Source: Bacteroidales bacterium
GTDB taxonomy: Bacteria > Bacteroidota > Bacteroidia > Bacteroidales > GCA-2748055
Assembly: GCA_035638735.1 (NCBI GenBank)
Contig: DASQZK010000783.1
Span: forward strand, 1 to 24,800
DNA: 24,800 nt
Direction: 5' to 3'
The position numbers were made by a program, and so were the translations under genes. Positions 1-21,727 of the stretch are shown piece after piece (the stretch's first letter is position 1; each line of letters begins with the position of its first letter). The notes under the pieces are model-generated. The model was not told where the DNA came from and did no database searches. It saw nothing but the letters and a program-made list of their open reading frames with translations.

Positions 1-514
1 TCGTGCTGTATTTGCCTGTCCAGAATACGATGGCAGCCGCGATGAGTGATGATACGGCTGAACCGGTCTGGGAAGCACTCCGTGTATGGCCGTAATAGTT
101 GACTTTTTGGGCTCCCCATCCTTTTATCCTGAGATATTCGAAGATCATGGCCTTATGTACCCCGCTGCGGAACGCTTCTCCAAGAGAGAAAAAGAGCATG
201 GCAAGGATGAACCAGGGATAGCTTCCGGTGAAGAAAAACGTTGTAAAGGAAACCATGTAAAAAAGGAAAGATCCGGCCAGGGTGCGGCGTCTTCCCCAGG
301 CATCGGCTACCAGTCCGCTCGGGATCTCAAAAAGGTTAACTGTAATCTCCCTGATGGCATAAAGGATACCGATCTGCAGAAAGCTAATCCCCTTTTCGAG
401 AAAGAACAACATCAGGAAGGGTTCGAAAAAGCGCAAATTTTTAAGGAAGCCGTAAGCCTGGAATTTCCTGAATTGCAGATTTTTCCGGATACCGTTCTTC
501 TGCTTTCGTGTCAT
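1..514 (-). CDS. MFS transporter, N-terminal part (3' end runs off the window)
   Basis: Hand translation of the minus strand from ATG 514 is open for 171 codons to the window edge: MTRKQKNGIRKNLQFRKFQAYGFLKNLRFFEPFLMLFFLEKGISFLQIGILYAIREITVNLFEIPSGLVADAWGRRRTLAGSFLFYMVSF...LGEAFRSGVHKAMIFEYL.... It has several hydrophobic helices and MFS motif A (G-x3-D-x-WGRR). The ATG lies 2 nt after the stop of the TPS/TPP gene. It is absent from the ORF track, probably because there is no stop codon in the window. Confidence 0.9.
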   Translation of the reverse strand, partial: MTRKQKNGIRKNLQFRKFQAYGFLKNLRFFEPFLMLFFLEKGISFLQIGILYAIREITVNLFEIPSGLVADAWGRRRTLAGSFLFYMVSFTTFFFTGSYPWFILAMLFFSLGEAFRSGVHKAMIFEYLRIKGWGAQKVNYYGHTRSASQTGSAVSSLIAAAIVFWTGKYST

Positions 515-516
515 GA

Positions 517-2730
517 CTATTTTACTACAGTCTTAAGTATTTCCCTGATGTTTTTATAACCGTCGACAAAGTATTTTGCCCGTGTCGATTTTTCGCCTAC
601 CTTAATAGTGATTGTTTCTTCGGGCAGGTATTCGAAAGTAAACTCATCGGTCCAGTCGTCGCCCATGGCAAGGATGAAATCGTAATGATTATTCCCCATG
701 CGCGACAGGGCTGCCCGTCCCTTGTTGATCCCCGAATTTTTAATTTCTATCACCTTGTCACCATCCATAATCTCGAGGTTAAGGTTTGTTACCAGGCTCT
801 GAAGTTCGTCTTTGAGCTCGTAGGAACGCTGAACGCCCAGATCGGGGTCGGAGTCGCGGTAATGCCAGACCAGGGAATAATTTTTTTCTTCGATAAAGCT
901 TCGCGGTGTGCGGTCAACATAAAAATCGAGAATGGGTTTGATGATCTCCATCCAGTCTTTGTCGATAGCATCAACCGTATGCCACTGACCATCCACTTTT
1001 TTATGCCATACCCCGTGTTCAGCTATAAAACCGATGCGCCAGTCTGCATTGAACCAGTTGGAAAGGGTTTCTTTATCGCGTCCGCTGATGATGACAACAT
1101 TATTTTTCTTGTCAGCCGTGAGCTTTTTGAGAATGCTGTATAATTCCTTATCGGGTTTGGCGTCCTGTGGATCTTTGAAAAAGCCCTGCAGTGTTCCGTC
1201 GTAGTCGAGGAATATCATCCTGTTATTTGACGACTTGTACCTGTCGATAATAGCCTTTGAGATGCGATTGTTTATCTTTCGCGTCAGGTTGTATTCCTGG
1301 TTCTTCTTGACGGCTTTGAGAGCTTCCAGAAAATCGGTTGCCCACTTTTTATTGGTATAGGTTGAAAGTCGTTTTTGAAGGGCCTTATTTCTCCGGATCT
1401 GTTCTTCTTCGGGCATGGAAAGTGCCTGGCAAATGGCGTCTGATATTTCCCGCCTGTTGTTGGGGTTTACAATGACCGCTTCACCCATCTCCTTGGAGGC
1501 GCCGGCCATTTCGGAGAGGATAAGGACGCCTTTCTGATCGGGTTTGGAAGCAATAAATTCTTTTGAAACCAGGTTCATACCGTCCCGTAACGGCGTTACC
1601 AGCGCAATGTCGGACGAGACATACACTTCCACAAGCTGGTCGAAGTTCAGTTCCCTGAAAAAGTAAAAAACAGGCGTCCAGTCTATACGTCCATACTCAC
1701 TGTTGATCTTTCCGACCTGCTGGTCCAGTTCTGCCTTGATCAGCTTGTTTTCGGGATCGTTTTCCCTGAGGGTGGTGATGTACATCAGCAGCGATACTTT
1801 TCGGCGGTAATTCTCGTTTTTCTCAAGAAATTCGCGATAAGCTTTGACCCTGTTAATGAGCCCTTTCGTGTAATCGAGACGTTCCAGTAACAGGATGATC
1901 TTATTGCCGGGCCTTACCCGGACGTGTTTCTCAATTTCATGATGAAAATTCGCCAGCTTTTCGGGTACCTTCACTTTTATTTCTGACGAACGGTTATGGA
2001 ATTTTTCATAGTCAATGCCCATGGGGAAGTTATCGACTTTGAGCTTCCGTTTTTGATAAGTGATCTGGTTAAAATAGGTATCGAGTCCTAAGAGACGTCG
2101 CAGGGAACTGATGAAGTGTCGCTCATAGTCGTAGGTGTGAAAACCTATCAGATCGGCGCCTAACAGGCCCTCGAGCACCTCGATGCGCCAAGGGAGCAGC
2201 CTGAAAACTTCGTAAGATGGGAAGGGAATATGCTGGAAATAGCCGATAGTAAGATCGGGAAAACGTTCCCTGAGCATTTTAGGCAGGAGCATAAGATGAT
2301 AATCGTGTATCCATACCGTATCACCCTTCCGGACGATCTTCTCCAGTTCATCGGCATACTTGTTGTTTACCCGGACGTATTGCATCCATTCTTTTTCGCG
2401 ATACGTCGATTTTTCATTGTAGTAGTGAAACAAAGGCCAGATCGTGCCGTTGGCAAAACCTTCAAGGTATTTCTCTCGCTCTTGCTTCCGCAGGGATATG
2501 GGAAAACAGTTTTTCTTTTTCAGATCTATGTTTATTTCTTCCCATTTTTCGGGTGACAGATCGCGGCGATCCAGACCTGTCCAACCTACCCATAAGGTGT
2601 CGTCTGTTTGATCGAACCTGTCAAGCCCGCTTGTGAAACCGCCAATACGCCGGGTGAGAGCGGTTTCTCCTTTTTTGTTCCGGTAAATTTTTAATGGTAA
2701 CAGATTTGATACAAAGATAAGTCGGCTCAT
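517..2730 (-). CDS. Fused GT20 trehalose-6-phosphate synthase-like domain + HAD trehalose-6-phosphate phosphatase (OtsA-OtsB type fusion); acceptor site of the TPS domain is atypical
   Basis: GT20 motifs WPLFHY, WIHDYHL, HIPFP, RLDYTKG, RDGMNLVSKE. HAD-IIB TPP motifs DYDGTL, SGR, AEHG, WHYR, NKG, GDDWTDE. The track start at 2760 is a TTG; ATG 2730 (MSRLIFVSN, AT-rich upstream) matches the usual family start better. Confidence 0.93.
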   Translation of the reverse strand: MSRLIFVSNLLPLKIYRNKKGETALTRRIGGFTSGLDRFDQTDDTLWVGWTGLDRRDLSPEKWEEINIDLKKKNCFPISLRKQEREKYLEGFANGTIWPLFHYYNEKSTYREKEWMQYVRVNNKYADELEKIVRKGDTVWIHDYHLMLLPKMLRERFPDLTIGYFQHIPFPSYEVFRLLPWRIEVLEGLLGADLIGFHTYDYERHFISSLRRLLGLDTYFNQITYQKRKLKVDNFPMGIDYEKFHNRSSEIKVKVPEKLANFHHEIEKHVRVRPGNKIILLLERLDYTKGLINRVKAYREFLEKNENYRRKVSLLMYITTLRENDPENKLIKAELDQQVGKINSEYGRIDWTPVFYFFRELNFDQLVEVYVSSDIALVTPLRDGMNLVSKEFIASKPDQKGVLILSEMAGASKEMGEAVIVNPNNRREISDAICQALSMPEEEQIRRNKALQKRLSTYTNKKWATDFLEALKAVKKNQEYNLTRKINNRISKAIIDRYKSSNNRMIFLDYDGTLQGFFKDPQDAKPDKELYSILKKLTADKKNNVVIISGRDKETLSNWFNADWRIGFIAEHGVWHKKVDGQWHTVDAIDKDWMEIIKPILDFYVDRTPRSFIEEKNYSLVWHYRDSDPDLGVQRSYELKDELQSLVTNLNLEIMDGDKVIEIKNSGINKGRAALSRMGNNHYDFILAMGDDWTDEFTFEYLPEETITIKVGEKSTRAKYFVDGYKNIREILKTVVK

Positions 2731-2882
2731 ACTTTTTAGGTTGGTATTTGAATAAAACAACGATAATTAATCAACAATTCAAAGCTCCGAAACGTTTTAA
2801 TTATTCAGAAAGTTCAGTGAAATCTGGTGTTATGAGGCTTCTGTCATTCAGTATCATTGCTCATCAACCACCTGCCAGGTTA

Positions 2883-2890
2883 CAAAGATA
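2883..2890 (-). promoter_or_regulatory. Putative Bacteroidota -7 promoter box (TATCTTTG) for the TPS/TPP-MFS operon
   Basis: The plus strand reads CAAAGATA, which is TAnnTTTG on the minus strand, about 150 nt upstream of ATG 2730. No clear -33 TTTG. A 6-position motif in AT-rich DNA can occur by chance. Confidence 0.5.
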
Positions 2891-2926
2891 TAGCGTTAAC
2901 CCATACTAAGAATTCGGCTGTTAACA

Positions 2927-2934
2927 TATATTTG
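2927..2934 (+). promoter_or_regulatory. Putative Bacteroidota -7 promoter box (TATATTTG) for the HAD-GH65 gene
   Basis: Exact TAnnTTTG 61 nt upstream of ATG 2996. No clear -33 element. Confidence 0.55.
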
Positions 2935-2995
2935 TTTAATTTTAGATCAAACAGATCCGATTCTCAATCTTAAATATAATAAAGATACTTTATTT

Positions 2996-5900
2996 ATGGA
3001 AATACATCACTTTGATGCCGTCATATTTGATCTTGATGGAGTCATTACAAAAACGGCGCTGGTGCATTCCTCGGCCTGGACCAGGATGTTTAACGACTTT
3101 CTTACCTCAAGAGAAGAAAAATATGGCGAATCGTATAGCGAGTTTACACACGAAAAAGATTATCTGCCCTATGTTGATGGAAAACCCAGGTATAAAGGGG
3201 TCGCAGACTTTTTAAAGTCGCGTGATATTGACATCCCTTTCGGTGATCCCTCCGATCCTCCCGAAAAAGAAACGGTCTGTGGACTTGGAAACAGGAAGAA
3301 TAATTATTTTACCGACATTCTTGAAAAAGACGGCGTTGAAGTTTACGAAACAAGTGTAGCGTTCATCAGGCAACTTCGGTCTGAAGGTATACGTGTAGGT
3401 GTTGCCTCATCGAGCAAGAACTGTAAGAAGGTGCTTGAAACGGCAGGACTGATTGATCTGTTTGAGACACGTGTTGACGGGTTGGTTTCAGCCGACATGG
3501 GGTTGAAAGGGAAGCCCGAACCCGACATTTTTACTACGGCCTGCGATAACCTGAATGTGGCCTACGACCGCTCTGTGGTAGTGGAAGATGCTGTAAGCGG
3601 TGTACAGGCCGGAGCTGCCGGTGGATTCGGTCTCACCCTTGGCATTGCCAGGGAAGGCAATGTTGCTGAGCTCCGTAAGAACGGGGCTGATATCGTTGTC
3701 GAAGATATTGGTGACCTCGGCGGTATTGAAGCGGTGAACCGCTGGTTTAAGGATGACCTCGAGAAGTTAAGATGGTCTGTACTCTATAAGTCTTACGATA
3801 AAGAGAAGGAAAAATCGCGCGAGGCCCTTCTCACCACCGGAAACGGTTTTTTTGCAAGCCGGGGGGCGATGGAGGAAACTTCTGCCGGTGAATACAACTA
3901 CCCGGGAAGTTATATGACAGGTTTATACAACAGGCGGAAATCCAAAGTGAGTGACCGCTGGATTGAAAATGAAGATTTTGTGAACTTTATAAACTGGCTG
4001 CCGGTGAATTTCAGGGTCGACGGCGGCGAATGGTTCGATCCTAATGCACACGACTTCCATCTTATTGAACGCCGCCTGGATCTGAAGACCGGCATGTTAT
4101 ACCGGTCACTTATTGTTAAACATGATAAGGGACGGGAAACACTCGTCGAGTCCAGGCGTTTTGTGAGTATGGCCGATCCCCACCTTGGCGGGCTTGAATA
4201 TAAGGTGACACCAGTCAACTACGCAGGCAAAATTGAGATCATGTCGGCTCTCGACGGCGATCTGATCAACGACGGCGTCGAACGCTACAGCGACCTGGAC
4301 CAACATCATCTCGATCAGCTCGATCAGGGAACAATGAATGGTCTCGACTATGTCATTGTTAAAACCAACCAATCGGATATTACCGTTTCGGTAGCACAGA
4401 AACTCGACGTGACCCTTGCAGGAAAAATGGTGAACCGTTCATCTTTCGAACCTGTAAAAGGAAAGGTGACTTCATATTTCGAATCGAATGCGGCAGCCAA
4501 TGAATGCTTGCAACTACGTAAAATTGTCTGTATTCATAACTCCCGTGATTTCGAAGTGAACAATCCACTCGGTGCCGTGGCTGAACAATTATCTGCCGAG
4601 GATGATTTTAACAAAATCTTCGGTGCCAGTGAACAGGCCTGGGGAAAAATCTGGAAAAAATCCGATATTGCCATCAGTGGTGACCGATACTCCCAGATGC
4701 TGATCAGGCTGCACATTTTTCATCTCCTCACAACGGCATCTCCCCATCATAAGCACCTCGATGCCGGTATCCCCGCCAGGGGACTGCATGGGGAGGCATA
4801 TCGCGGACATATTTTCTGGGATGAATTATATGTGCTGCCTTTCTTTGCTACCTACTTCCCGGAAACAGCGCGGTCTGTGCTGATGTACCGTTACCGCAGG
4901 CTCAACAAAGCACGCCAGTATGCTGCTGACCATAATTATGAAGGTGCCATGTTCCCGTGGCAGAGCGGAAGCGATGGCAGGGAAGAAACACAGGTCGTTC
5001 ATCTTAATCCGGTATCCGGCGAATGGGGCGATGATTACAGCTCACTGCAAAGACATATATCATCGGCTATCGCTTATAATATATGGCAGTATTATAAAAT
5101 ATCGGCCGACCAGGATTTTATGAATCAGTATGGAGCAGAAATGTTCTTTGAAATTTGCCGTTTCTGGGCTTCAAAGGCCAAAAAGGATGAGAAAACAGGC
5201 CGGTATTCCATCGGTAAGGTTATGGGACCTGACGAATTTCACGAAAAACTGCCCGATGCCGATGAAGGCGGACTAAAAGATAATGCGTATATCAACATCA
5301 TGAGCGCCTGGATAATGAAAACGGCGTTCAGCATCATGGACCAGCTTGATATTAATGAACGCAAAAGGATTGTCGAAAAAATCGAATTAAAGAAAGAGGA
5401 ACTCGTCAAATGGAAAGAGATGTCGCTAAAAATGAATCTTCTCTTTAATGACAACGGCATTCTTGAACAGTTCCAGGGCTATTTCGATCTCAAAGAACTC
5501 GACTGGGACGAATACAGGAAAAAATATGATGACATTCACCGTATGGACCGGATCCTAAAGGCCGAGGGTAATTCACCCGACGATTATAAAGTGGCTAAAC
5601 AGGCCGATGCGCTGATGACATTCTACAACCTCGACAAAGACGAGGTTATCAGTCTGTTACATGATATGGGGTATGAAGCGGATGCCTCCATATTGAAGAA
5701 AAACTTTGATTATTACCTACCCCGTACCTCTCATGGGTCAACCCTGAGCCGCGTGGTTCACGCTTACCTCGCCAGGCTTACCGGTAAAAATGAGCTTTGC
5801 GACGAGCTCTACATGGAAGCCCTGGCCAGTGACTACGTCGATATACAGGGAGGTACCACGGGAGAAGGCATCCATGTGGGCGTCATGGGTGGCACTGTTT

Positions 5901-6151
5901 TAAATGCGCTCACCATTTATGCCGGGGTGAACTGGCATGGGGAGACACTCCGCCTTGATCCGGCTCTTCCCCCGGGCTGGAAAAGTCTCGCATTTAATTT
6001 CAACATCGATGGCCGGCATTTTCACTTCGAGATCTCAGCCCACGACGTGAAGATTCAATATAATTCCGATAATGGATCCCCAGGCAGAATCTTTGTGAAA
6101 GGCATTAAATGTGAACTTGAAAACAGCCGTACCATCTTCGTTGAGTTGTAA
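2996..6151 (+). CDS. Beta-phosphoglucomutase-like HAD domain fused to a GH65 glycoside phosphorylase, probably of the trehalose-6-phosphate phosphorylase (TrePP) clade
   Basis: The N-terminal ~240 aa carry bPGM-type HAD motifs DLDGVITKT, YVDGKPR, ASSSKN, KPEPDIF, VEDAVSG. The GH65 part has LLTTGNG, NEDFVN, ARGLHGEAYRGHIFWDE, catalytic GPDEF, KQAD and SHGSTLS. From memory, ARGLHGEAYRGHIFWDE and NEDFVN are typical of the TrePP/OtsB1 branch rather than maltose or kojibiose phosphorylases. GH65 membership is firm; the substrate is less certain. Confidence 0.88.
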   Translation: MEIHHFDAVIFDLDGVITKTALVHSSAWTRMFNDFLTSREEKYGESYSEFTHEKDYLPYVDGKPRYKGVADFLKSRDIDIPFGDPSDPPEKETVCGLGNRKNNYFTDILEKDGVEVYETSVAFIRQLRSEGIRVGVASSSKNCKKVLETAGLIDLFETRVDGLVSADMGLKGKPEPDIFTTACDNLNVAYDRSVVVEDAVSGVQAGAAGGFGLTLGIAREGNVAELRKNGADIVVEDIGDLGGIEAVNRWFKDDLEKLRWSVLYKSYDKEKEKSREALLTTGNGFFASRGAMEETSAGEYNYPGSYMTGLYNRRKSKVSDRWIENEDFVNFINWLPVNFRVDGGEWFDPNAHDFHLIERRLDLKTGMLYRSLIVKHDKGRETLVESRRFVSMADPHLGGLEYKVTPVNYAGKIEIMSALDGDLINDGVERYSDLDQHHLDQLDQGTMNGLDYVIVKTNQSDITVSVAQKLDVTLAGKMVNRSSFEPVKGKVTSYFESNAAANECLQLRKIVCIHNSRDFEVNNPLGAVAEQLSAEDDFNKIFGASEQAWGKIWKKSDIAISGDRYSQMLIRLHIFHLLTTASPHHKHLDAGIPARGLHGEAYRGHIFWDELYVLPFFATYFPETARSVLMYRYRRLNKARQYAADHNYEGAMFPWQSGSDGREETQVVHLNPVSGEWGDDYSSLQRHISSAIAYNIWQYYKISADQDFMNQYGAEMFFEICRFWASKAKKDEKTGRYSIGKVMGPDEFHEKLPDADEGGLKDNAYINIMSAWIMKTAFSIMDQLDINERKRIVEKIELKKEELVKWKEMSLKMNLLFNDNGILEQFQGYFDLKELDWDEYRKKYDDIHRMDRILKAEGNSPDDYKVAKQADALMTFYNLDKDEVISLLHDMGYEADASILKKNFDYYLPRTSHGSTLSRVVHAYLARLTGKNELCDELYMEALASDYVDIQGGTTGEGIHVGVMGGTVLNALTIYAGVNWHGETLRLDPALPPGWKSLAFNFNIDGRHFHFEISAHDVKIQYNSDNGSPGRIFVKGIKCELENSRTIFVEL

Positions 6152-6221: not shown

Positions 6222-6887
6222 ATGCTTGGTGACATACTTATTATCCGTGAAATGCACAAGGCGGCTGCCGAAGCAATTGCAAAAAGGGTTATTCAGGAGA
6301 GAGATAAGCTACATAAAGGTTATAAATTCATTGTTGGCATTTCAGGTGAGTCAGGGGCCGGGAAGTCAGAGGTTTCCCATTCCCTTGCCAGACGTCTTAA
6401 ATCAGAAAGGATTAGAGTCAAGGTACTGCATGCCGACGATTATTATAAAGTTCCTCCGCTGCTTAGAACCGAATGGCGTCGGGTACAAGGCATCGAAACG
6501 GTAGGCATGCAGGAATACGACTGGAACCTGATCCAGCGTAACATCCAGGATTTTAAGGAAGACCGGGAATCAATGATGCCCTGTATCGATATTATCCCCG
6601 AGCAGGTCGATAAACTGATAACCGACTTCAAGAAGATCGACCTCCTGGTGGTTGACGGCTTGTACGCTCTCAAAGCCGACGGATTGGATATGCGTGTCTT
6701 TATTGACCTGGATTACCATGAGACAAAAATTTCACAGATACAGAGAGGTAAAGAAAATCTGGATGACTTCAGGCTTGCCGTCCTTGAAAAAGAACATCAG
6801 AACGTTCTTTCACTTAAACCATTAGCCGATCTGATTATTGATAAGAACTACCAGGTTATCGACCCCAGGACGGGCGAATTCGTATAA
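6222..6887 (+). CDS. P-loop small-molecule kinase, uridine kinase/phosphoribulokinase fold, substrate unknown
   Basis: Walker A ISGESGAGKS, HADDYY (compare SQDSYY of uridine kinases), LVVDGLYAL (compare IIVEGIL) and MRVFID. The uridine-kinase NFDHP motif is not present (VGMQEYDW instead). Confidence 0.75.
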   Translation: MLGDILIIREMHKAAAEAIAKRVIQERDKLHKGYKFIVGISGESGAGKSEVSHSLARRLKSERIRVKVLHADDYYKVPPLLRTEWRRVQGIETVGMQEYDWNLIQRNIQDFKEDRESMMPCIDIIPEQVDKLITDFKKIDLLVVDGLYALKADGLDMRVFIDLDYHETKISQIQRGKENLDDFRLAVLEKEHQNVLSLKPLADLIIDKNYQVIDPRTGEFV

Positions 6888-6974: not shown

Positions 6975-9845
6975 ATGCAAAAGACCTTTTCCGGCATACT
7001 GATAATATGCTTCACTTTTGTCTTTGCTCCTTTTTGGTCTTCCCTGTCGGCCCAGAAGGCGACTAAATCTTTCGTGATCAACTTCAACAAGGAAACTTAC
7101 GGGGCCGGGAGCCAGAACTGGTCCGTTTCTATCGACAGTAGCGGGATCGTATATATCGGGAACAACAAGGGACTGATGAGTTACGACGGGGCCAACTGGA
7201 ACCTTTACCGCATGCCCGACGATATGGTGGTAAGGTCGGTTGCCGCAGGTAGTGAAGAAAGGATCTATGTGGGGGCGTTTGAGGAATTTGGATATTTTTC
7301 ACCAGACGGTCATGGCGGACTGACGTATACTTCGTTGAGCAGCCTGCCCGAAAGTCAGAGTTTCCACAACGATGAAATATGGCGTATCCTGGTCCATAAC
7401 GGCAACGTATATTTTCAGTCATTCTCACATATTTATGTTTACGACGGAAAAAGGGTAAAGGTGATTGATCCCGCCGGAACCATCGTATTGCTTATGGAAG
7501 CCCGCAACCGGGTGTTCGTTCACAAAGTAGGGGATGGCCTGTACGAACTTAAAAATGATAGTCTCGTATTCGTTCCGGGAAGCGAAAAGTTTTCAGACGA
7601 TGAAATAAAGACCATACTGCCTTTTGGAAGGGATGAATTCCTTGCCGGTGCAGCTTCAGGTGGTCTGTATGTCATGGACAACCATGGGTTCAGACCCCTG
7701 GAAAAACCTGTCAATTCGATGATCAGGGATGCTGAGATCAACAACGGAATTGTCCTCGACAGTTTTCTTATCATTGGTACCATCGTTAACGGGATCTATG
7801 TTCTTAATTATGATGGAAGCCTCAGGGAACATCTAAATACAGATAATTTTCTCCAAAACAACACCATTCTGGCTCTGAAGCCTGGAATAGGACGCTCGTT
7901 CTGGGCCGGACTGGACCGGGGTATCGATTATATTAACCTGGATACCCCCCTGACCTTTTATATCGATCCATCGCTCAACAGGCGTGCTGTGTACGATGCT
8001 GCACTTACAGGCGATACACTTTGGGTAGGCACTAATCAGGGTTTGTTCCGCTATGCATACGATCCTTCCTCGGGCTATTCTCACCCCGAACTTGTGGAAG
8101 GCACCCAGGGCCAGGTGTGGGACCTTAGCGTGATTGACGGAGATTTGTACTGCGGCCATACCAACGGAACCTTTCTCATACGTAACGGAGTGCCTGTCCG
8201 TATTTCAGATGTCAACGGTGGATATGAAATCAAGAAAATTAATGCCAACGGCCACGAAATCCTTCTTCAAAGCAGTTACAGTGTGTTCTCAGTCTTTACC
8301 CGTAAAGGCAATATATGGGAATTTTCCAGGGCCATTCCAGGATTTTACGAACCCGTACCGCAATTTGAAACTGATTTTTACGGCTATATTTGGGCTTCGC
8401 ACGCCAATAAAGGTCTGTACCGATTGAAATTTGACCCGGGCTATTCACGCCTCGAGGAGACAAGATATTTCGGACAGGCCAATGGACTGCCTACAGAACG
8501 TCATATTGGCATAGCAACCGTTGATAACCGGGTAGTATTTTGTACCAGGAATAAAATTTATACGTATAACGACCTGTCCGATACCATCGTTCCTTACGAC
8601 TGGCTTAACCAGCAACTTGGTGAATTTGCTTCCTCCGGACGGATTGTAAACGTAGGCCACAACCGTTACTGGTGCGTCGATGGCAATAAGGTTGCCCTGT
8701 TTCATATTGCCAACGGAAAGAGCACCCCCATTTTTACCTACGATCTGTCCCTTCAGGGGGCTACTTTTGGCAGTGGGCAACCGGGAATTTCTGTACTGAA
8801 TAACAGCCTTTACCTCCTGTGTCTGGATAACGGATTTGCCTTGTTCGACCGGTCAGATTCATCTGCACTCGTTGCACCCGCCATGCAACCTATTATCAGG
8901 CAGGTACTGGCTTTCAACCGTAAACATAAACCTTTTCGGTTACCGGCCACTTTAAACGGAAAACAACCTGAGCTGTCCTGGGGACATAGAAATATCGGGT
9001 TTATCTATTCAACCGATCAGATCAGTGTGTCCCCTCTTTTCAGCCATCGCCTGACTGGCATCGAAAACCAGTGGTCGGAGTGGTCGGGCCGTTCAAAAGT
9101 AACCTATACCCGCTTACCTGCCGGAGATTACCGATTTGAGGTTCGTACCATGAAAACGGATGGAACCGCCAGCCAGCCCATACTTTACAGTTTTGGAATA
9201 AAACGGCCATGGTATGCCTCCCTGCTGGCCCTGCTTATTTACGGTATAATGGTGATTGCCGGAGTCGTGGTTCTTCGCATCATCTTTGTCAGGCGGGTAA
9301 GGAAGCATACCCTGCGCATGCAGACCCTTGAAATGGAAAAACGCCGACGCGACAAGATCATCGCCGAACAGGATATCGTCAGGCTCAGGAATGAAAAACT
9401 GCACGCCGAGGTGTCGCATAAAAACATCCAGCTGGCCAATTATACCATGACCATCCTTAAGAAAAACGAACTGCTGATTAAGTTGAGAGATGAAATCAGC
9501 AGGCAAAAGAAGGACCTTGGTGGCAGGTACCCGAACTATCATTACGACCGGCTTATCGCGATGATCGATTCCAATATTTCTTCTGAAGACGACTGGCAAA
9601 TCTTTGAAATGCATTTTGACCAGGCCCATGAAAATTTCTTTATGCGCCTGAAAGCCGCCTATTCCGAACTTACTCCCAGCGATCTTAAGCTTTGTGCTTA
9701 CCTTCGCCTTAATCTCACTTCCAAGGAGATTGCACCGCTGCTCAATATTTCTGTCAGGGGCGTTGAAATACGCCGATACCGTCTCAGAAAACGATTAATA
9801 CTCAATACCGAAGATAACCTCGTGGAGTTTCTCATGAATTTCTAA
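6975..9845 (+). CDS. Membrane-anchored one-component PUL regulator: periplasmic beta-propeller + Y_Y_Y domain, one TM helix, coiled coil, C-terminal LuxR-type HTH
   Basis: N-terminal signal sequence, propeller repeats (YIGNNKGL, WAGLDRG, WVGTNQGL), Y_Y_Y region (HRLTGIENQWSEW...YTRLPAGDYRFEVR), TM WYASLLALLIYGIMVIAGVVVL and HTH LTPSDLKLCAYLRLNLTSKEIAPLLNISVRGVEIRRYRLRKRL. No histidine kinase or receiver motifs. Confidence 0.88.
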   Translation: MQKTFSGILIICFTFVFAPFWSSLSAQKATKSFVINFNKETYGAGSQNWSVSIDSSGIVYIGNNKGLMSYDGANWNLYRMPDDMVVRSVAAGSEERIYVGAFEEFGYFSPDGHGGLTYTSLSSLPESQSFHNDEIWRILVHNGNVYFQSFSHIYVYDGKRVKVIDPAGTIVLLMEARNRVFVHKVGDGLYELKNDSLVFVPGSEKFSDDEIKTILPFGRDEFLAGAASGGLYVMDNHGFRPLEKPVNSMIRDAEINNGIVLDSFLIIGTIVNGIYVLNYDGSLREHLNTDNFLQNNTILALKPGIGRSFWAGLDRGIDYINLDTPLTFYIDPSLNRRAVYDAALTGDTLWVGTNQGLFRYAYDPSSGYSHPELVEGTQGQVWDLSVIDGDLYCGHTNGTFLIRNGVPVRISDVNGGYEIKKINANGHEILLQSSYSVFSVFTRKGNIWEFSRAIPGFYEPVPQFETDFYGYIWASHANKGLYRLKFDPGYSRLEETRYFGQANGLPTERHIGIATVDNRVVFCTRNKIYTYNDLSDTIVPYDWLNQQLGEFASSGRIVNVGHNRYWCVDGNKVALFHIANGKSTPIFTYDLSLQGATFGSGQPGISVLNNSLYLLCLDNGFALFDRSDSSALVAPAMQPIIRQVLAFNRKHKPFRLPATLNGKQPELSWGHRNIGFIYSTDQISVSPLFSHRLTGIENQWSEWSGRSKVTYTRLPAGDYRFEVRTMKTDGTASQPILYSFGIKRPWYASLLALLIYGIMVIAGVVVLRIIFVRRVRKHTLRMQTLEMEKRRRDKIIAEQDIVRLRNEKLHAEVSHKNIQLANYTMTILKKNELLIKLRDEISRQKKDLGGRYPNYHYDRLIAMIDSNISSEDDWQIFEMHFDQAHENFFMRLKAAYSELTPSDLKLCAYLRLNLTSKEIAPLLNISVRGVEIRRYRLRKRLILNTEDNLVEFLMNF

Positions 9846-9864
9846 TATTTCCACCGAGGGCATA

Positions 9865-9955
9865 TCTACATATTTTCTACAACTCTCCATTCTGTATCTA
9901 TTAATTGATAAATGATACCCGTATGATTACTGCGTATGATGTAGTGATGATGTAT
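9865..9955. promoter_or_regulatory. Helically phased repeats, candidate operator of the adjacent LuxR-type regulator
   Basis: TCTACA at 9865 and 9876 (11-bp period, TGTAGA on the minus strand). TGATGTA at 9937 and 9948 (11-bp period). CGTATGAT at 9920 and 9933. All lie between the regulator and the first PUL gene. Confidence 0.45.
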
Positions 9956-10073
9956 GGCTAAAAATGCTGTTTCATAACATGAAGTAATGAAGTGAAGGTA
10001 AAGATTTTCAATAAGATATATTCAAATGATAACTTGTTATTCATTGTTCTTAATGAGAAATTCTTCCCTTACT

Positions 10074-11471
10074 ATGAAAAGAAACAACAAAGCCGCTATG
10101 AAAGCGCTACTGTTTTCCGGTCTGCTTTTTTTCGTTCTAATCGTCTCATGCACCAATAGTAAGAGACCTGCAGAAGCTCCCGACCGGGAGGCTTTTCTTT
10201 CTGATCTTAAACAACGGACCTTCAATTATTTCTGGGAGCAGGTTGATATGCCGACCTGGGGAATCCCCGACCGTTATCCCAGCCGCAGGTTTACGAGCAT
10301 TGCCGCCACTGGTTTTGGTCTGACGTCATACCTGGTGGGCATTGAAAACGGGTATATCACCCGAGAGCAGGGAGCCGGGAGGGTGTTAAATACATTACGC
10401 TGGTTCTGGCATTCGAAACAGGGGCCTGAGAAATCGGGTGTGACCGGATACAAAGGTTTTTATTATCACTTTCTCACCTATGGTGATGGAGAAAGGTTTG
10501 AAAATACTGAGTTATCGACCATCGATACGGGGCTGTTAATGGCTGGGATTCTTTCCTGTCAATCTTATTTCGATGGTGATAATACTGAAGAAACCTCGAT
10601 CAGGGCCCTGGCCGATTCCCTCTACCTAAGGGTACAATGGGACTGGGCTATGAACGGATTGGATGCCATGTCGATGGGTTATCATCCCGGGCAGGGATTT
10701 CTCAAAGCTAAATGGGTGGGTTACAATGAAGCCATGGTGCTGGTCCTGATGGCTATGGGGTCACCGACACATCCTATTGGCGACAGTGCCTGGTCTACCT
10801 GGTGCAAGCCCTATGTATGGGCTGACTTTTATGGTTACGACATGATCAATTTCAGTCCCCTGTTTGGACATCAGTATTCGCAAATGTATGTTGACTTCCG
10901 GGGTATTCAGGATGCATATACTCGCTCAAAGGGCATTGATTATTTCGAAAATTCAAGAAGGGCTACTCTGGGGAACAGGGCGTATTGCATCGACAATCCC
11001 AAAGCTTATGATGGCTACTCCGATAATATATGGGGTCTGACTGCCTGCGACGGTCCGGGCCATAGTGAACAAATGACAGACCACGGCCTCAGGCAATTCT
11101 GGTCTTATCGTGCACGTGGCGCCAGCGCTATTGACACCATTGATGACGGCACCATTGCCCCGACAGCTGCAGGAGGTTCCATACCCTTTGCACCCGACGA
11201 ATGTATAAATGCCCTGATGACCATGAAAGCACAATACGGTGATTCACTATACCGGAAATATGGCTTTTGCGATGCCTTCAATATGACATATAAAACGAGT
11301 AGTGGTAAAAAAGGCTGGTTCGACGTAGATTATATAGGTATTGACCAGGGCCCCATTCTTATCCAGCTGGAAAATTATCAGACAGGACTGATCTGGGACG
11401 TGATGAAGAAAAACAAATATATCGTAGCCGGCCTCAGGAGGGCAGGTTTCAGTGGAGGATGGCTGGAGTAA
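10074..11471 (+). CDS. GH144-like (glucoamylase-family/DUF3131) beta-1,2-glucanase lipoprotein, paralog A, catalytic domain only
   Basis: Motifs QRTFNYFW, SIAATGFGL, GFYYHF, ELSTIDT, GYNE, WGLTACD, GIDQGP. Lipobox LIVS-C. Start uncertain: 10026 (track), 10074 or 10098; the latter two give normal-length signal peptides. Confidence 0.82.
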   Translation: MKRNNKAAMKALLFSGLLFFVLIVSCTNSKRPAEAPDREAFLSDLKQRTFNYFWEQVDMPTWGIPDRYPSRRFTSIAATGFGLTSYLVGIENGYITREQGAGRVLNTLRWFWHSKQGPEKSGVTGYKGFYYHFLTYGDGERFENTELSTIDTGLLMAGILSCQSYFDGDNTEETSIRALADSLYLRVQWDWAMNGLDAMSMGYHPGQGFLKAKWVGYNEAMVLVLMAMGSPTHPIGDSAWSTWCKPYVWADFYGYDMINFSPLFGHQYSQMYVDFRGIQDAYTRSKGIDYFENSRRATLGNRAYCIDNPKAYDGYSDNIWGLTACDGPGHSEQMTDHGLRQFWSYRARGASAIDTIDDGTIAPTAAGGSIPFAPDECINALMTMKAQYGDSLYRKYGFCDAFNMTYKTSSGKKGWFDVDYIGIDQGPILIQLENYQTGLIWDVMKKNKYIVAGLRRAGFSGGWLE

Positions 11472-11547
11472 ATGTTAAAAAAAACGAACAATTTATGCTT
11501 TACATCGCTTATACTCAAATTGATATAACATTCTAAACCGCCTGTCT

Positions 11548-14500
11548 ATGAATTCAAACAAAGGGTCTGGATACCTGAGGATTTTTTCAGTTATCCTGAT
11601 AATGTTGCTTATGGCTCCGGTCGTTTTTGCCCAGCAAAGGCAGATAACCGGCAAGGTGACCGATGCCGCCGATGGAAGCTCTCTGCCGGGAGTCAATGTC
11701 TTTATCAAAGGAACAACCCGGGGAGTGATTACTGATCTTAGCGGGAATTATACCATTCCTGTGAATCCCGGGGACGATACCCTTGCTTTTTCTTATGTCG
11801 GATATCAACCACAAGCCGTCCTCATTGACGATAAAACAGAAATTAATATTCAGCTCAAAGTGGAGGCTGAAGCTATAAATGAAGTAGTGGTGATAGGTTA
11901 CGGAACGGTTAAGAAAAGCGACCTTTCGGGTTCGGTAAGTTCATTAAAATCGGCCGACATCACCAAAATCACTTCTCAAAACCCGGTTCAGTCACTCTCA
12001 GGCAAAGTGGCCGGTATCCATGTCACCAGCAGCTCTGGAGCACCGGGTGCTTCACCGGTTGTAAGGATCCGGGGTGTTGGTACGTTCAATAACTCATCCC
12101 CGATTTATGTCGTCGATGGTGTTATTCTTGACGATATCTCTTTCCTGAACAGTGAAGACATTGCCTCTGTTGAGGTACTTAAAGATGCTTCGGCAACAGC
12201 TATTTACGGTTCACGTGGCGCCAACGGTGTTATCATTGTCACTACCAAGTCGGGCCAGGCAGGGACGGCAAAACCGCAGTTCAGCTTCGATGCCGAATAC
12301 AGCATCCAGCAGGTAGAGAGGAAAATTGACCTGTTGAACGGCCGGCAGTTCGCTACCATTTACAATGAAATCCAGCCGGGGAGGTTCAATAACGTCGACC
12401 TGGTTCCAAATACCAACTGGCAGGACCTGATCTTTCATACAGCTCCCCTCCAGAATTACCAGTTCTCGGTTTCGGGCGCCACAAAGGTCAATCACTATTA
12501 CGTTGGTATTGGCTATTACGGCCAGGAGGGTATTATTGACAAGTCGCTATACCAAAGGCTTTCTCTGAGGTTTAACAATACCTATAACCTGACCGACCAT
12601 ATTACCTTTGGTAACAATATCACTATTGTTCCTTTCAAACAGCGCAATGCCCCCAATGTGACCTATGCTGCTTACCGGGCCCAGCCTGTTTTTACACCTT
12701 ACAATCAGGATGGAAGTTATGCTGAGGTCGAGAATGTGGGCAACCCCCTGGCTGACCTGCATTATTCTCATAATTTCAACAAAGGCGTCAGGGGTGTCGG
12801 TAATATCTACGGACAGGCTGTCATATTTAAGATCCTGACACTTAAATCGAGCTTTGGTGTTGATGCCAATATGGAAAGACCGTTGAATTTCACACCCGCT
12901 TTCCATGTTTCACCCCAGCAGGAAAATGTACTGAGTGACTTATCCAAGGGGCTGAACCAGAGGTTCTCCTGGCTTTGGGAGAACACGGTTACACTGCAGA
13001 AAACATTTGACCAGCATTCTATTAATGCTGTAGCCGGATATACAATGCAGCGTTACAGCTCGGAAATAATTAATCTTCCGGGTGAGAACCTGATCAGGGA
13101 TCAGAGCCAGTTCTGGTACGTGTCGCCCTCGAACATATATGATCCGTCCAATGGTGTGAACACCATACAGGACATTTTCGATGGGGTAGACAATAACCTG
13201 TACTATTCGATGATATCTTATCTTTTCAGGGCAAATTACACTTATAAACAGAGATACATTCTCACCTTTACCTACCGGCGCGACGGTTCCTCCAAGTTCG
13301 CTTCCGGTAACCGTTATGGTGATTTTCCGTCGGGGGCCATTGCCTGGAATGTTTCCCGTGAACCTTTCATGGATAATTTAGAGTTTATCAGCAATCTGAA
13401 GATAAGGGCAAGCTACGGTCTTATAGGAAATGAAAAGATCCAGTACCTGGAACGTTATAACCAGGTAGATCAAAGCCTCCTGGCGGTCTTCGGTATAAAT
13501 GAATCGGCGAATTCTGCGGCTACCTTCGGCCGTAGTGGAAATCCGGGTCTGCACTGGGAGAATACCAAACAGGCCGATGTGGGTGTCGAGATTGGTGCAT
13601 TGAAAAACAAGTTGACGGGTGAGTTTGATTATTATCACCGTAAGACCAATGATATTCTAATTGCTCTGCAGATTCCGGCCATCCTGGGCAACGGTGGCGA
13701 CAAGAAATCATTTAATGCCGCACAGGTACTCAATTCAGGTTTTGAATATAAAGTTGAGTGGCGTGACCGTATAGGCGATTTCAATTACAGCGTAGGACTG
13801 GTAGGGTCCACTGTTCATAACGAAGTGCTGGCCATTGGTGGGTCGAGCGGTTCCGACTCGGTTTTGATCGGTGGTTTCCTGGGTAACGGCATTCCGGTTA
13901 CCCAGAGCAGGGTAGGCCTTCCCATTGGTGCTTTCTATGGTTATGAGACCAACGGGATATTTCAATCCCAGCCAGAACTGGATTCGTATCCCCACTTATC
14001 CAATGCCGGCGTTGGAGATTTACGTTTTGTGAATACGAATCATGATAAGGTGCTCGACGGGAAGGACAGGACTTATATCGGGTCGCCCATTCCGGATGTG
14101 ATTTTCGGCCTAAATATTACGGGTGAATATAAAGGTTTTGACCTGGCCCTGGATTTCCAGGGACAGTATGGCAATAAGATATTTAACGCCAAGGAGGTTG
14201 TCAGGCCCGATCCTTATAATTTTGAAGCCCATGTGTTCGACCGTTGGACCGGTCCGGGAACGAGTACTACCGAACCACGGCCATCGTTTGGCGGTTATAA
14301 CTACATTCCTTCCGACAGATTTATACAGGATGGCTCTTATTTACGTCTCAGGACTTTCGTGCTGGGCTACAGTCTGCCGGCCTCCCTGTTGGCCAAAATG
14401 CCTATCGACAGGCTCAGAATCTACCTGAAAGGGACCAACCTTTATACTCTAACCCAATTTACCGGTTATTCACCCGATATCGCGAGCAGTGATGTGATAT

Positions 14501-14571
14501 CCAACGGCATTGACAGTGGTACATATCCAGTTACCAGGCTTTATTCAATCGGACTAAACATTTCCTTTTAG
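11548..14571 (+). CDS. susC: SusC/RagA-family TonB-dependent outer-membrane transporter
   Basis: Signal peptide, N-terminal extension QITGKVTDAADGSSLPGVNVFIKGT, EVVVIGYG, PIYVVDG, plug signature DIASVEVLKDASATAIYGSRGANGVIIVTTK and C-terminal YPVTRLYSIGLNISF. The symbol denotes the family. Confidence 0.97.
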   Translation: MNSNKGSGYLRIFSVILIMLLMAPVVFAQQRQITGKVTDAADGSSLPGVNVFIKGTTRGVITDLSGNYTIPVNPGDDTLAFSYVGYQPQAVLIDDKTEINIQLKVEAEAINEVVVIGYGTVKKSDLSGSVSSLKSADITKITSQNPVQSLSGKVAGIHVTSSSGAPGASPVVRIRGVGTFNNSSPIYVVDGVILDDISFLNSEDIASVEVLKDASATAIYGSRGANGVIIVTTKSGQAGTAKPQFSFDAEYSIQQVERKIDLLNGRQFATIYNEIQPGRFNNVDLVPNTNWQDLIFHTAPLQNYQFSVSGATKVNHYYVGIGYYGQEGIIDKSLYQRLSLRFNNTYNLTDHITFGNNITIVPFKQRNAPNVTYAAYRAQPVFTPYNQDGSYAEVENVGNPLADLHYSHNFNKGVRGVGNIYGQAVIFKILTLKSSFGVDANMERPLNFTPAFHVSPQQENVLSDLSKGLNQRFSWLWENTVTLQKTFDQHSINAVAGYTMQRYSSEIINLPGENLIRDQSQFWYVSPSNIYDPSNGVNTIQDIFDGVDNNLYYSMISYLFRANYTYKQRYILTFTYRRDGSSKFASGNRYGDFPSGAIAWNVSREPFMDNLEFISNLKIRASYGLIGNEKIQYLERYNQVDQSLLAVFGINESANSAATFGRSGNPGLHWENTKQADVGVEIGALKNKLTGEFDYYHRKTNDILIALQIPAILGNGGDKKSFNAAQVLNSGFEYKVEWRDRIGDFNYSVGLVGSTVHNEVLAIGGSSGSDSVLIGGFLGNGIPVTQSRVGLPIGAFYGYETNGIFQSQPELDSYPHLSNAGVGDLRFVNTNHDKVLDGKDRTYIGSPIPDVIFGLNITGEYKGFDLALDFQGQYGNKIFNAKEVVRPDPYNFEAHVFDRWTGPGTSTTEPRPSFGGYNYIPSDRFIQDGSYLRLRTFVLGYSLPASLLAKMPIDRLRIYLKGTNLYTLTQFTGYSPDIASSDVISNGIDSGTYPVTRLYSIGLNISF

Positions 14572-14573
14572 AT

Positions 14574-16061
14574 ATGAAAAAGATCAGATATACCATAACA
14601 GCTTTTCTCCTGGTACTTATTCTTTTGCCGGGGTGTGAGGACTTTCTGAACACAGAACTCCAGGGCAACCTTACCCAGGAGACTTTCCCGACCACGGCTG
14701 GTGATGCCTTGCTGGCTAACAATGCCGTCTATGCTTCACTGCGGGAATGGAATTACAATTCGGGAGGATACCCGATACTGGACATCATGTCGGATGATGC
14801 CCGAAAGGGAAGCAACACCAACGACCAGGTGGCAAACCTGGGTCCTTATAATAATTTCACTATTACAACCACCCAGGACGGCCTCGACCGCTGGTGGACA
14901 AATCTTTACCAGGGCATTAAACGTGCGAATGTGGTCATCAATATCGTTTCCACGATCGATATGGATACCACCCTCAGGAATCGCTATGTTGCTGAAGCCA
15001 GATTTTTACGGGGATTGTTCTATTTCGACCTGGTCAGAGCCTGGGGGGAAGTTCCTGTTATTACAAGTGAAAATCCGCCGGTGCACGTTCCTAAATCACC
15101 AGTTGATGATGTCTATAGCCTCATCAGGAGTGATCTCAACTATGCGGTTACTCATCTACCCCTGAGAAGCGAATACCAGGGCAACGATATCGGAAGGGCA
15201 ACAAAAGGAGCCGCCAAATCTCTGCTGGCCAAAGTTTACCTGTTCGATCACGATTTTGTCAATGCCGGGAAATATGCTCTGGAGGTGATCAATTCCGATG
15301 AGTATGGTCTTGAGCCGGTTTTCACCGATGCCAATGGTGTTAACGGCGAACACGGCACGGAGTCTGTTTTCGAAGTAGGTGCCCTTGAAGTGAGCGGTGG
15401 CGGAGGCCCCGGGAACCAGTATGCTAACACGCAGGGTGTAAGAGGAACACCGAACAGGGGATGGGGATTTAACCGACCTTCCCTCGACCTTCGAAATTCT
15501 TTTGAGTCTGGTGACCCCAGGCTGAAAGGCACTATTATAGACCTTGGCGATACCATTGACGGGATAAAGATCCTGGGTGACGGCCCTACACCCGATGAAT
15601 TGCGTGACAGCCAGGGGAACCTTATCGAAGTGGAGTGTTACAGCCGGAAAGTATGGATGCCCGGCACCAGCACTATCGAAGAATGGGGATACAATCGCAG
15701 GATCATCAGGTACGCCGACGTATTGCTCATGGCCGCCGAAGCCCTCAACGAGAATGACAAACCAGGCCAGGCGCTTATTTATCTTAACAAAGTGAGGGAA
15801 AGAGCCAGACAGGGTAACACCCAGATCCTTCCTGATATTACCGAAACCAATAAAGACAGCCTGCGTGATATCATTCTCGAGGAACGGCGGCACGAACTGG
15901 CTATGGAAGGACAACGCTTCTGGGACCTGGTGCGTACCGGCAAAGCACAGGACGTGCTCGGTCCACTTGGCTATACATCCAAATATGAAACGCTTCCTAT
16001 ACCGCAAAATGAAATTGATATTTCACAAGGATCATTAGTGCAAAACCCGAATTGGCAATAA
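14574..16061 (+). CDS. susD: SusD/RagB-family glycan-binding lipoprotein
   Basis: Lipobox LPG-C, AEARFLRGLFYFDLVRAWGEVP, RIIRYADVLLMAAEALNE, ERRHELAMEGQRFWDLVR. Starts 2 nt after susC. The symbol denotes the family. Confidence 0.96.
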   Translation: MKKIRYTITAFLLVLILLPGCEDFLNTELQGNLTQETFPTTAGDALLANNAVYASLREWNYNSGGYPILDIMSDDARKGSNTNDQVANLGPYNNFTITTTQDGLDRWWTNLYQGIKRANVVINIVSTIDMDTTLRNRYVAEARFLRGLFYFDLVRAWGEVPVITSENPPVHVPKSPVDDVYSLIRSDLNYAVTHLPLRSEYQGNDIGRATKGAAKSLLAKVYLFDHDFVNAGKYALEVINSDEYGLEPVFTDANGVNGEHGTESVFEVGALEVSGGGGPGNQYANTQGVRGTPNRGWGFNRPSLDLRNSFESGDPRLKGTIIDLGDTIDGIKILGDGPTPDELRDSQGNLIEVECYSRKVWMPGTSTIEEWGYNRRIIRYADVLLMAAEALNENDKPGQALIYLNKVRERARQGNTQILPDITETNKDSLRDIILEERRHELAMEGQRFWDLVRTGKAQDVLGPLGYTSKYETLPIPQNEIDISQGSLVQNPNWQ

Positions 16062-16096
16062 TAAATTTTTTGTTAAATCTTTAATCTACTTGACTT

Positions 16097-17335: not shown

Positions 17336-17357
17336 TAACTTTCATGATGTTGAAACC

Positions 17358-17387
17358 GGGAGGCGACCCTTACGGGTCCCTCCCTTT
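17358..17387 (+). terminator. Strong intra-operon stem-loop (partial terminator or RNA-stabilising hairpin)
   Basis: GGGAGG-C-GACCC [TTAC] GGGTC-CCTCCC: 11 bp, mostly G-C, with one bulged C, followed by only TTTAATT. It lies between the binding-protein gene and the last GH144. Confidence 0.6.
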
Positions 17388-17402
17388 AATTAAAGTAACG
17401 GG

Positions 17403-21665: not shown

Positions 21666-21719
21666 CAGGATTCGGTTACTTTTAAGAATAATTAATGACA
21701 AAGTTTGACAATCCTTGCT

Positions 21720-21727
21720 CAAATATA
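21720..21727 (-). promoter_or_regulatory. Putative -7 promoter box (TATATTTG) for the 7TM-SpoIIE gene
   Basis: The plus strand reads CAAATATA, which is TAnnTTTG on the minus strand, about 55 nt upstream of ATG 21665. Confidence 0.55.

Follow-up and report, generated by a model that had tools for sequence, protein, structure and literature searches.

Inactive domains resembling trehalose-6-phosphate synthase (TPS) exist in fungal Tps2 and in plant class II TPS. Here we describe a bacterial protein, P0001, that likewise joins a synthase-like domain to a phosphatase with intact haloacid dehalogenase (HAD) motifs. This fusion of TPS and trehalose-6-phosphate phosphatase (TPP) domains is encoded in a 24,800-nucleotide stretch of Bacteroidales DNA (GenBank assembly GCA_035638735.1, contig DASQZK010000783.1, positions 1 to 24,800), hereafter the window. 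Unlike the fungal and plant proteins, P0001, known here from its sequence, is bacterial and of independent origin, is changed at phosphate contacts only and has a pocket under strong purifying selection. It belongs to a paralogue family in which remodelled phosphate sites go together with genes for a predicted trehalose 6-phosphate (T6P) phosphorylase, a beta-phosphoglucomutase (beta-PGM) and a kinase. We found no description of this family in the literature searched; searches for published work on the clade or its gene module, on a trehalose kinase or on residue lists for the Tps2 N-terminal domain returned nothing directly relevant.

Escherichia coli OtsA and fungal Tps1 (EC 2.4.1.15) are the catalytic reference points for the synthase half. 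The published OtsA set for glucose 6-phosphate (G6P) binding comprises Arg9, Trp40, Tyr76, Trp85 and Arg300, that for uridine diphosphate (UDP)-glucose comprises Gly22, Asp130, His154, Arg262, Asp361 and Glu369, and several of the OtsA binding residues are absent from proteins unable to complement tps1 (PMC1769515). In Candida albicans Tps1, the Y89F mutation at the Tyr76 equivalent made in vitro activity undetectable, with a mild in vivo phenotype (PMC5527307). P0001 shares the GT-B GT20 fold of these enzymes and keeps their donor-side and sugar-contacting residues, but it has leucine at two of the three G6P-phosphate residues, a rewritten acceptor loop and a score below the cut-off of the OtsA model TIGR02400.

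Closer in architecture are the canonical bifunctional fusions (TPSP; model NF011071), which include the reportedly active Cytophaga hutchinsonii ChTPSP and Thermoproteus tenax TPSP. They have the same two domains and length and are 42-52% identical to P0001, from which they differ in keeping Arg9, Ser19 (as Ser or Asn), Gly21-Gly22, Tyr76, Arg262 and Arg300 (73 of 73 sequences, ChTPSP not among them) and in having no link to the GH65-kinase operon described below. The T. tenax protein has phosphatase activity on its own, and its synthase activity requires a partner protein (PMC3634074). Red-algal (Galdieria, Pyropia) TPS-TPP-like floridoside- and isofloridoside-phosphate synthases have a conserved donor site and a G6P site that is not conserved (PMC6642608). 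Those enzymes differ in being eukaryotic, and P0001 shows no sign of a matching acceptor, its GH65 neighbour pointing to T6P instead.

The fusion and the residues that matter to its interpretation lie as follows; throughout, L numbers denote loci, G numbers genomes and P numbers proteins.

520..2730, minus strand: coding sequence of the TPS-TPP fusion P0001, 737 amino acids, from the open reading frame list and translation; stop codon at 517-519
1315..2724, minus strand: GT20 (TPS-like) domain, residues 3-472 (Pfam, E = 6.9e-143)
562..1212, minus strand: Trehalose_PPase (HAD-IIB) domain, residues 507-723 (Pfam, E = 3.1e-52), motifs I-IV intact
2701..2703, minus strand: CTG codon of Leu10 (in VSNLLP), at the OtsA Arg9 position, from the sequence and alignments
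2647..2649, minus strand: Arg28 codon, at the OtsA Ser19 position, from alignments
2464..2466, minus strand: CTT codon of Leu89 (in K-Y-L-E-G-F), at the position of OtsA Tyr76 and C. albicans Tps1 Tyr89, from the sequence and alignments
1879..1881, minus strand: Arg284 codon, equivalent to OtsA Arg262 (donor diphosphate), kept here and Trp in sister subclade C2, from alignments
1747..1782, minus strand: rewritten acceptor loop YITTLRENDPEN, residues 317-328, from the sequence and alignments
1765..1767, minus strand: Arg322 codon, equivalent to OtsA Arg300 and C. albicans Arg318, kept, from alignments

The start codon is the ATG at 2730, matching the homologues of P0001. Its GT20 match (PF00982) is full-length, covering positions 2-472 of the 473-position profile with 477 bits (cut-off 32.5); among solved structures, this part comes closest to fungal Tps1 (E = 1.6e-106) and to OtsA of E. 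coli (E = 7e-74). The phosphatase half scores 177.5 bits with PF02358 (cut-off 27) and 140.1 bits with TIGR00685 (cut-off 68). Over residues 1-736 the protein passes the NCBIfam bifunctional TPS/TPP model NF011071 (940.1 bits, cut-off 634), which is unable to tell the diverged clade described here from canonical fusions. It stays under the cut-off of the OtsA equivalog TIGR02400 in NCBIfam (503.7 bits, cut-off 564.85) and far under that of the GgpS equivalog TIGR02398 (325.5 bits, cut-off 569); the latter score rules out a glucosylglycerol-phosphate synthase.

Residue equivalences were taken from a HMMER alignment to C. albicans Tps1 (5hut) and a MAFFT alignment with E. coli OtsA (from L002). 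The initial annotation, made from the letters and a hand alignment, had placed leucines at the Arg9 and Tyr76 positions. The CTG and CTT codons read as it said, and the equivalences hold in both alignments, with Leu10 and Leu89 opposite Arg9 and Tyr76 of OtsA. It was also correct that only the Arg300 equivalent remains of the three phosphate contacts: Arg322 is kept, inside a rewritten loop in which the canonical Pro, Ser and Tyr are replaced by Thr, Leu and Asn. The donor side is complete (Gly30-Gly31, His167, Arg284, Lys289, Asp383 and Glu391), and Trp47, Trp98 (the equivalents of OtsA Trp40 and Trp85) and Asp143 are also kept. Only Arg9 and Tyr76 are thus missing from the two published OtsA sets, and the donor-side residues and all four HAD motifs are intact, as had been proposed.

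We compared the 120 best matches to P0001 with a canonical sample made up of 15 fusions from the window's own GTDB order and 58 drawn from archaea and about 20 other phyla, an uncultured Cytophagia genome among them. P0001 falls within a monophyletic clade of about 140 fusions (support 1.0, long stem) that occurs only in Bacteroidales, in uncultured Bacteroidales, Prolixibacteraceae-like genomes and similar sources; it is common among uncultured Bacteroidales of sediments and mats. Its nearest sister is formed by canonical fusions of the same order. The combination R-S/N-G-G-Y-R-R at OtsA positions 9, 19, 21, 22, 76, 262 and 300 is present in 73 of 73 canonical and 0 of 141 diverged sequences. 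The annotation had allowed that active Bacteroidota enzymes might commonly carry the same leucines; canonical fusions of the same order, of the uncultured Cytophagia genome (L048) and of the roughly 20 phyla instead keep Arg, Tyr and Arg. The loss of Tyr76 is real but not particular to P0001, since leucine occupies the position in about three-quarters of this clade of about 140 members tied to a beta-PGM-T6P-phosphorylase-kinase operon, the remainder having mostly Ile or Val.

The positions that vary across the diverged clade are those that contact phosphates. Arg9 gives way to Leu, Glu, Lys, Gln, Asn or Thr, Arg300 to Asn, Ser, Lys, His or Gly, and Gly21-Gly22 to Asp-Gly, His-Ala, Tyr-Gly and other pairs. 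Trp40, Trp85, His154, Lys267, Asp361 and Glu369 are almost invariant, and Asp130 is kept by most (Asn in 6 of the 120 homologues). In the phosphatase half, 97-100% of the clade retain the HAD motifs D-Y-D-G-T, S-G-R, K-G and G-D-D-x-T-D-E. Changes in the N-terminal region are correlated: Arg9 to Leu occurs with Ser19 to Arg in 28 of 29 sequences, Arg9 to Glu with Ser19 to Lys or Arg, and a retained Arg9 usually with Gly21 to Asp or Glu, which indicates that the N-terminal loop was rebuilt in several different ways. Two genomes, G104 (L085, L086) and G017 (L089, L090), each contain one canonical and one diverged, GH65-linked fusion; such pairs point to paralogues with different roles. Judged from this co-occurrence and from the tree, the diverged clade is a paralogue family rather than a local form of the housekeeping enzyme, and is derived from canonical fusions of the same order.

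Within the clade, Arg9 is replaced by Leu or Val, and Tyr76 by Leu, in every one of the 27 closest homologues of P0001 (59-78% identity). Together with three genome-contig loci these homologues define the window subclade (monophyletic, support 0.997), in which the Arg9 position is Leu or Val in all 28 members covering that site. The Ser19 position, Ser or Asn in 73 of 73 canonical fusions, is Arg in 97% of this subclade. It has three branches. C1, the window protein and nine others, has the loop x-L-R-E-N-D-x-x-N, whose L-R-E-N-D..N core is invariant across the ten members, and an intact donor site. C2, with 18 sequences, has Asn or Ser in place of Arg300 and Trp in place of Arg262, and C3, with two sequences, has Lys in place of Arg300. 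On these substitutions C2 is the clearest candidate for a catalytically dead synthase half. Its members (P0008-P0024, P0026, L005 and L111) keep the same gene neighbours as the rest.

The ratio of synthase-half to phosphatase-half divergence is 1.37 in the diverged clade against 0.94 in canonical fusions. Within C1, 19 pocket positions reach a conservation of 0.995 against a domain mean of 0.776, a value matched by none of 5,000 random 19-position sets. Leu10, Arg28, Leu89, Leu321, Arg322 and Asn328 are fixed in C1, whose pocket is conserved as in canonical enzymes. This conservation indicates that the altered pocket is under purifying selection and not simply decaying, so in the window subclade it would, on this pattern, still bind something.

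The genes around the fusion provide the second line of evidence.

2..514, minus strand: start of a major facilitator superfamily (MFS) transporter gene, truncated where the contig ends; it lies immediately downstream of the fusion, beginning 3 nt past the stop codon of the latter
2731..2995, no strand: divergent intergenic region of 265 nt between the fusion and the GH65 operon, from the sequence
2996..6151, plus strand: beta-phosphoglucomutase-GH65 fusion, 1051 amino acids (Pfam and NCBIfam)
6222..6887, plus strand: P-loop kinase of the uridine-kinase/phosphoribulokinase (PRK) fold, 221 amino acids, invariably downstream of the GH65 fusion

With the exception of L017, diverged fusions with readable flanks lie head-to-head with a HAD(beta-PGM)-GH65 gene followed by a 210-230-residue kinase (L003-L016, L018-L020, L080, L086, L090, L102 and L111-L113). 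Most genomes encode the HAD-GH65 protein as a single chain; in Prolixibacteraceae-like genomes it is split. Among 74 canonical fusions, a GH65 fusion is nearby in one (L095) and the kinase in none. At L095 (G131:C13), in the canonical sister group, a beta-PGM-GH65 fusion lies 1.3 kb from the canonical fusion with no kinase adjacent to it; this arrangement may resemble the state before divergence.

Across 151 sampled genomes of the order, GT20 scores above cut-off in 33, the kinase is present in 38 and both occur in ten, nine of which have a diverged fusion with the kinase close by. We examined eight kinase-bearing genomes without a TPS-TPP fusion (L103-L110): in all 8 the kinase gene comes immediately after a beta-PGM-GH65 fusion, and at least 6 of the 8 have a TreS-like GH13 gene ahead of the GH65 fusion (best NCBIfam hit TIGR02456, 448-480 bits, below cut-off). 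The kinase in such genomes is often a tandem pair. Because conversion of trehalose to T6P is the step missing from the cassette in organisms without a sugar phosphotransferase system (PTS), we regard the uridine-kinase/PRK-fold protein as a candidate trehalose kinase. A glucosylglycerate route, with the protein as a glycerate kinase of the PRK/uridine-kinase family, was considered and dropped given the T6P signature of the GH65 protein and the position of the kinase after TreS-like genes elsewhere.

That signature comes from the specificity positions of the GH65 part, which at CsKP positions 64, 392, 394, 402, 416 and 585 has D, Q, G, Q, an ambiguous residue and E. T6P phosphorylases have D-Q-G-Q-D-E at these positions and trehalose phosphorylases T-R-I-G-P-P (De Beul et al., PMC8537180). 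Like T6P and kojibiose phosphorylases, the GH65 part has long loops 3 and 7 (PMC11442529). Its catalytic Glu is retained, as are the phosphate-site residues of phosphorylases (Arg, Ser-Thr, His). In the PDB it matches 9lb6 best, with 530 bits against 332 bits for kojibiose phosphorylase; this entry, deposited as a 'trehalose-6-phosphate hydrolase', shares the H-G-S-T phosphate-site motif with the window protein. The GH65 half thus carries a T6P-phosphorylase signature and is predicted from it to act on T6P; with the motif and loops as they are, a plain trehalose phosphorylase is not favoured. The signature and intact phosphate site together imply that T6P has a source besides the synthase half. 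In Lactococcus lactis the corresponding activities belong to the GH65 enzyme TrePP and a beta-phosphoglucomutase; one window protein, with the T6P specificity positions and the phosphate site, is predicted to have both. Lactococci obtain T6P from the PTS, whereas the window type has the P-loop kinase and TPS-TPP-like fusion or, in other genomes, TreS-like GH13.

The two closest relatives encode a true TreS domain that scores above cut-off with 878-893 bits (G001:C2:916904-918514 and G002:C1:351427-353037), so trehalose there is independent of the synthase half. The open reading frames concerned span 1118-1144 amino acids, a length that suggests a TreS-maltokinase-type fusion. No TreS of this type was found in the window's incomplete genome, an assembly of 816 contigs that is 79.7% complete. 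The UDP-glucose pyrophosphorylase GalU is present in the window genome, G001 and G003 and falls below cut-off in G002 and G004; GlgC was found in none of these five genomes. Since this distribution does not discriminate between the readings below, we set aside sugar-donor shortage as an argument.

From the observed substitutions, clade, linkage, T6P signature and selection pattern we infer the following about activity, ligand, direction of flux and kinase substrate. Our leading interpretation, a tentative one, is that the synthase half has lost the ability to make T6P from UDP-glucose and G6P, or makes it too slowly to matter, and serves instead as a regulatory partner of the phosphatase, with the neighbouring proteins handling T6P. 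It would be a ligand-binding sensor or scaffold that gates the phosphatase. Across the family this half has kept its fold and its sugar and ribose contacts, and its G6P-phosphate contacts and, in some branches, its UDP-phosphate contacts have been remodelled beside a canonical phosphatase half. T6P would be supplied or removed by the neighbours, namely the phosphorylase from beta-glucose 1-phosphate (beta-G1P) and G6P, the beta-PGM and the kinase, which probably acts on trehalose, and the whole locus would decide which way material flows at the T6P/trehalose node. Other branches in the same gene context have changed Gly21 to Asp, Gly21-Gly22 to His-Ala and Arg262 to Trp, and such losses of donor-phosphate residues in sister subclades favour a non-catalytic role for the clade as a whole. 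The relatively faster evolution of the synthase half than of the phosphatase half (ratio 1.37) supports the same role, and the highly conserved pocket agrees with continued ligand binding by this domain.

Several points weigh against this interpretation. The C1 donor site is intact and GalU is encoded in the genome, which would leave catalysis possible for the window protein; given that donor site and the selected pocket, 'dead' may be too strong a word for the C1 synthase half. Purifying selection on the pocket would be equally expected of an enzyme with a changed acceptor, and Arg28, the arginine gained at the Ser19 position, may have taken over from Arg9 in contacting the phosphate. The fusion is also the only GT20 found in the window genome (79.7% complete) and in G001-G003, and the predicted neighbouring phosphorylase may run in either direction.

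Some of these points are at home in a second account, less probable in our estimation yet a serious candidate, in which P0001 is an active GT20 that transfers glucose from a nucleoside diphosphate (NDP)-glucose to an acceptor without a phosphate at the OtsA position. That acceptor might, with the same reserve, be free glucose, so that trehalose would form in one step as it does with TreT, or another small molecule, as in the red-algal floridoside-phosphate synthases. The complete C1 donor-site residues, the fixed acceptor positions in a pocket as conserved as that of canonical enzymes, and GalU are all in keeping with this, and a precedent exists in red-algal TPS-like enzymes that conserve the donor site, conserve the G6P site poorly and use glycerol-3-phosphate (PMC6642608). 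It sits badly with the fused phosphatase half, which is canonical and more conserved than usual and so implies a phosphorylated, T6P-like substrate, and with a GH65 neighbour whose signature is that of T6P rather than of another glucoside. Sister branches in the same context lack donor-phosphate residues, which makes a clade-wide glycosyltransferase function unlikely, and the GgpS match reaches 325 bits against a cut-off of 569.

We think it unlikely that the protein is an ordinary T6P synthase in which Arg322 and the new Arg28 hold the G6P phosphate in place of Arg9, so that a synthesis gene would face a degradation operon. The pairing of R9 to L with S19 to R in 28 of 29 sequences does look as though a change at one end of a loop compensates for that at the other, the bifunctional equivalog NF011071 is passed (940 versus 634 bits), and no other GT20 was found in these genomes. 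The Tyr76 hydroxyl, however, is lost with no replacement identified, and the far milder Y89F change was enough to remove measurable in vitro activity in Candida Tps1 (PMC5527307); the OtsA equivalog cut-off is missed (503.7 versus 564.85 bits), and genomes with both fusion types argue for different jobs. An artefact, whether a sequencing or assembly error or a drifting pseudogene, is highly improbable. The source genome is fragmented (816 contigs, 79.7% complete), but the 737-residue frame is intact, the same residues occur in 29 independent sequences from other assemblies, and the pocket conservation of 0.995 and the conserved neighbourhood speak for a maintained gene. With the intact frame, the shared residues and the pocket selection we rule out sequencing error or a pseudogene, and the annotation had likewise judged error unlikely: Leu10 (or Val) and Leu89 are found in all 29 subclade members. 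Its proposal of a pseudo-enzyme or a new acceptor specificity stands as far as a functional shift is concerned, which the clade-fixed changes support, and the relocated arginine adds to its two candidate readings a third that it did not consider.

A more speculative extension of the regulatory interpretation, which we consider improbable as a whole, is a nucleotide-sugar-free trehalose route. In it, beta-PGM would convert G6P to beta-G1P, the GH65 enzyme would join beta-G1P and G6P into T6P, and the phosphatase half would draw the pathway forward through trehalose release; the former synthase would be a sugar-sensing switch, and the kinase a trehalose kinase that returns surplus trehalose through these enzymes. 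To our knowledge, a nucleotide-sugar-free route has so far been used only in vitro, for T6P production; if the neighbours do supply T6P, this locus would encode a natural one. If the synthase half is a sensor, it would be a bacterial parallel of the regulatory TPS-like domains of fungi and plants. Either way, the annotation 'bifunctional trehalose-phosphate synthase/phosphatase' covers two families, and annotation-based predictions of trehalose synthesis should be revised for this order.

Neither the window genome nor G001-G003 yielded a second GT20 besides this fusion. No Rfam family, riboswitch or other RNA, scored at gathering level in the divergent spacer (2731..2995), in which a block near the start of the fusion is conserved with L003. 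The MFS gene follows the fusion in the window, L004, L013, L102 and L113; its 416-residue orthologue in L004 (12215-13465) matches Pfam MFS_1, and the transporter could move trehalose or a related sugar in or out. Downstream of the kinase, positions 6975-19391 of the plus strand hold a beta-1,2-glucan-type utilisation locus with a Y_Y_Y regulator, two PF10091/GH144-like enzymes, SusC, SusD and a lectin-like protein. A 7TMR-DISM/SpoIIE-phosphatase signalling gene (19572-21722, minus strand) lies beyond this locus as seen from the kinase. Because that signalling gene adjoins the kinase in L005 and L113, the glucan locus looks inserted into the trehalose module, an insertion common to L003 and L004.

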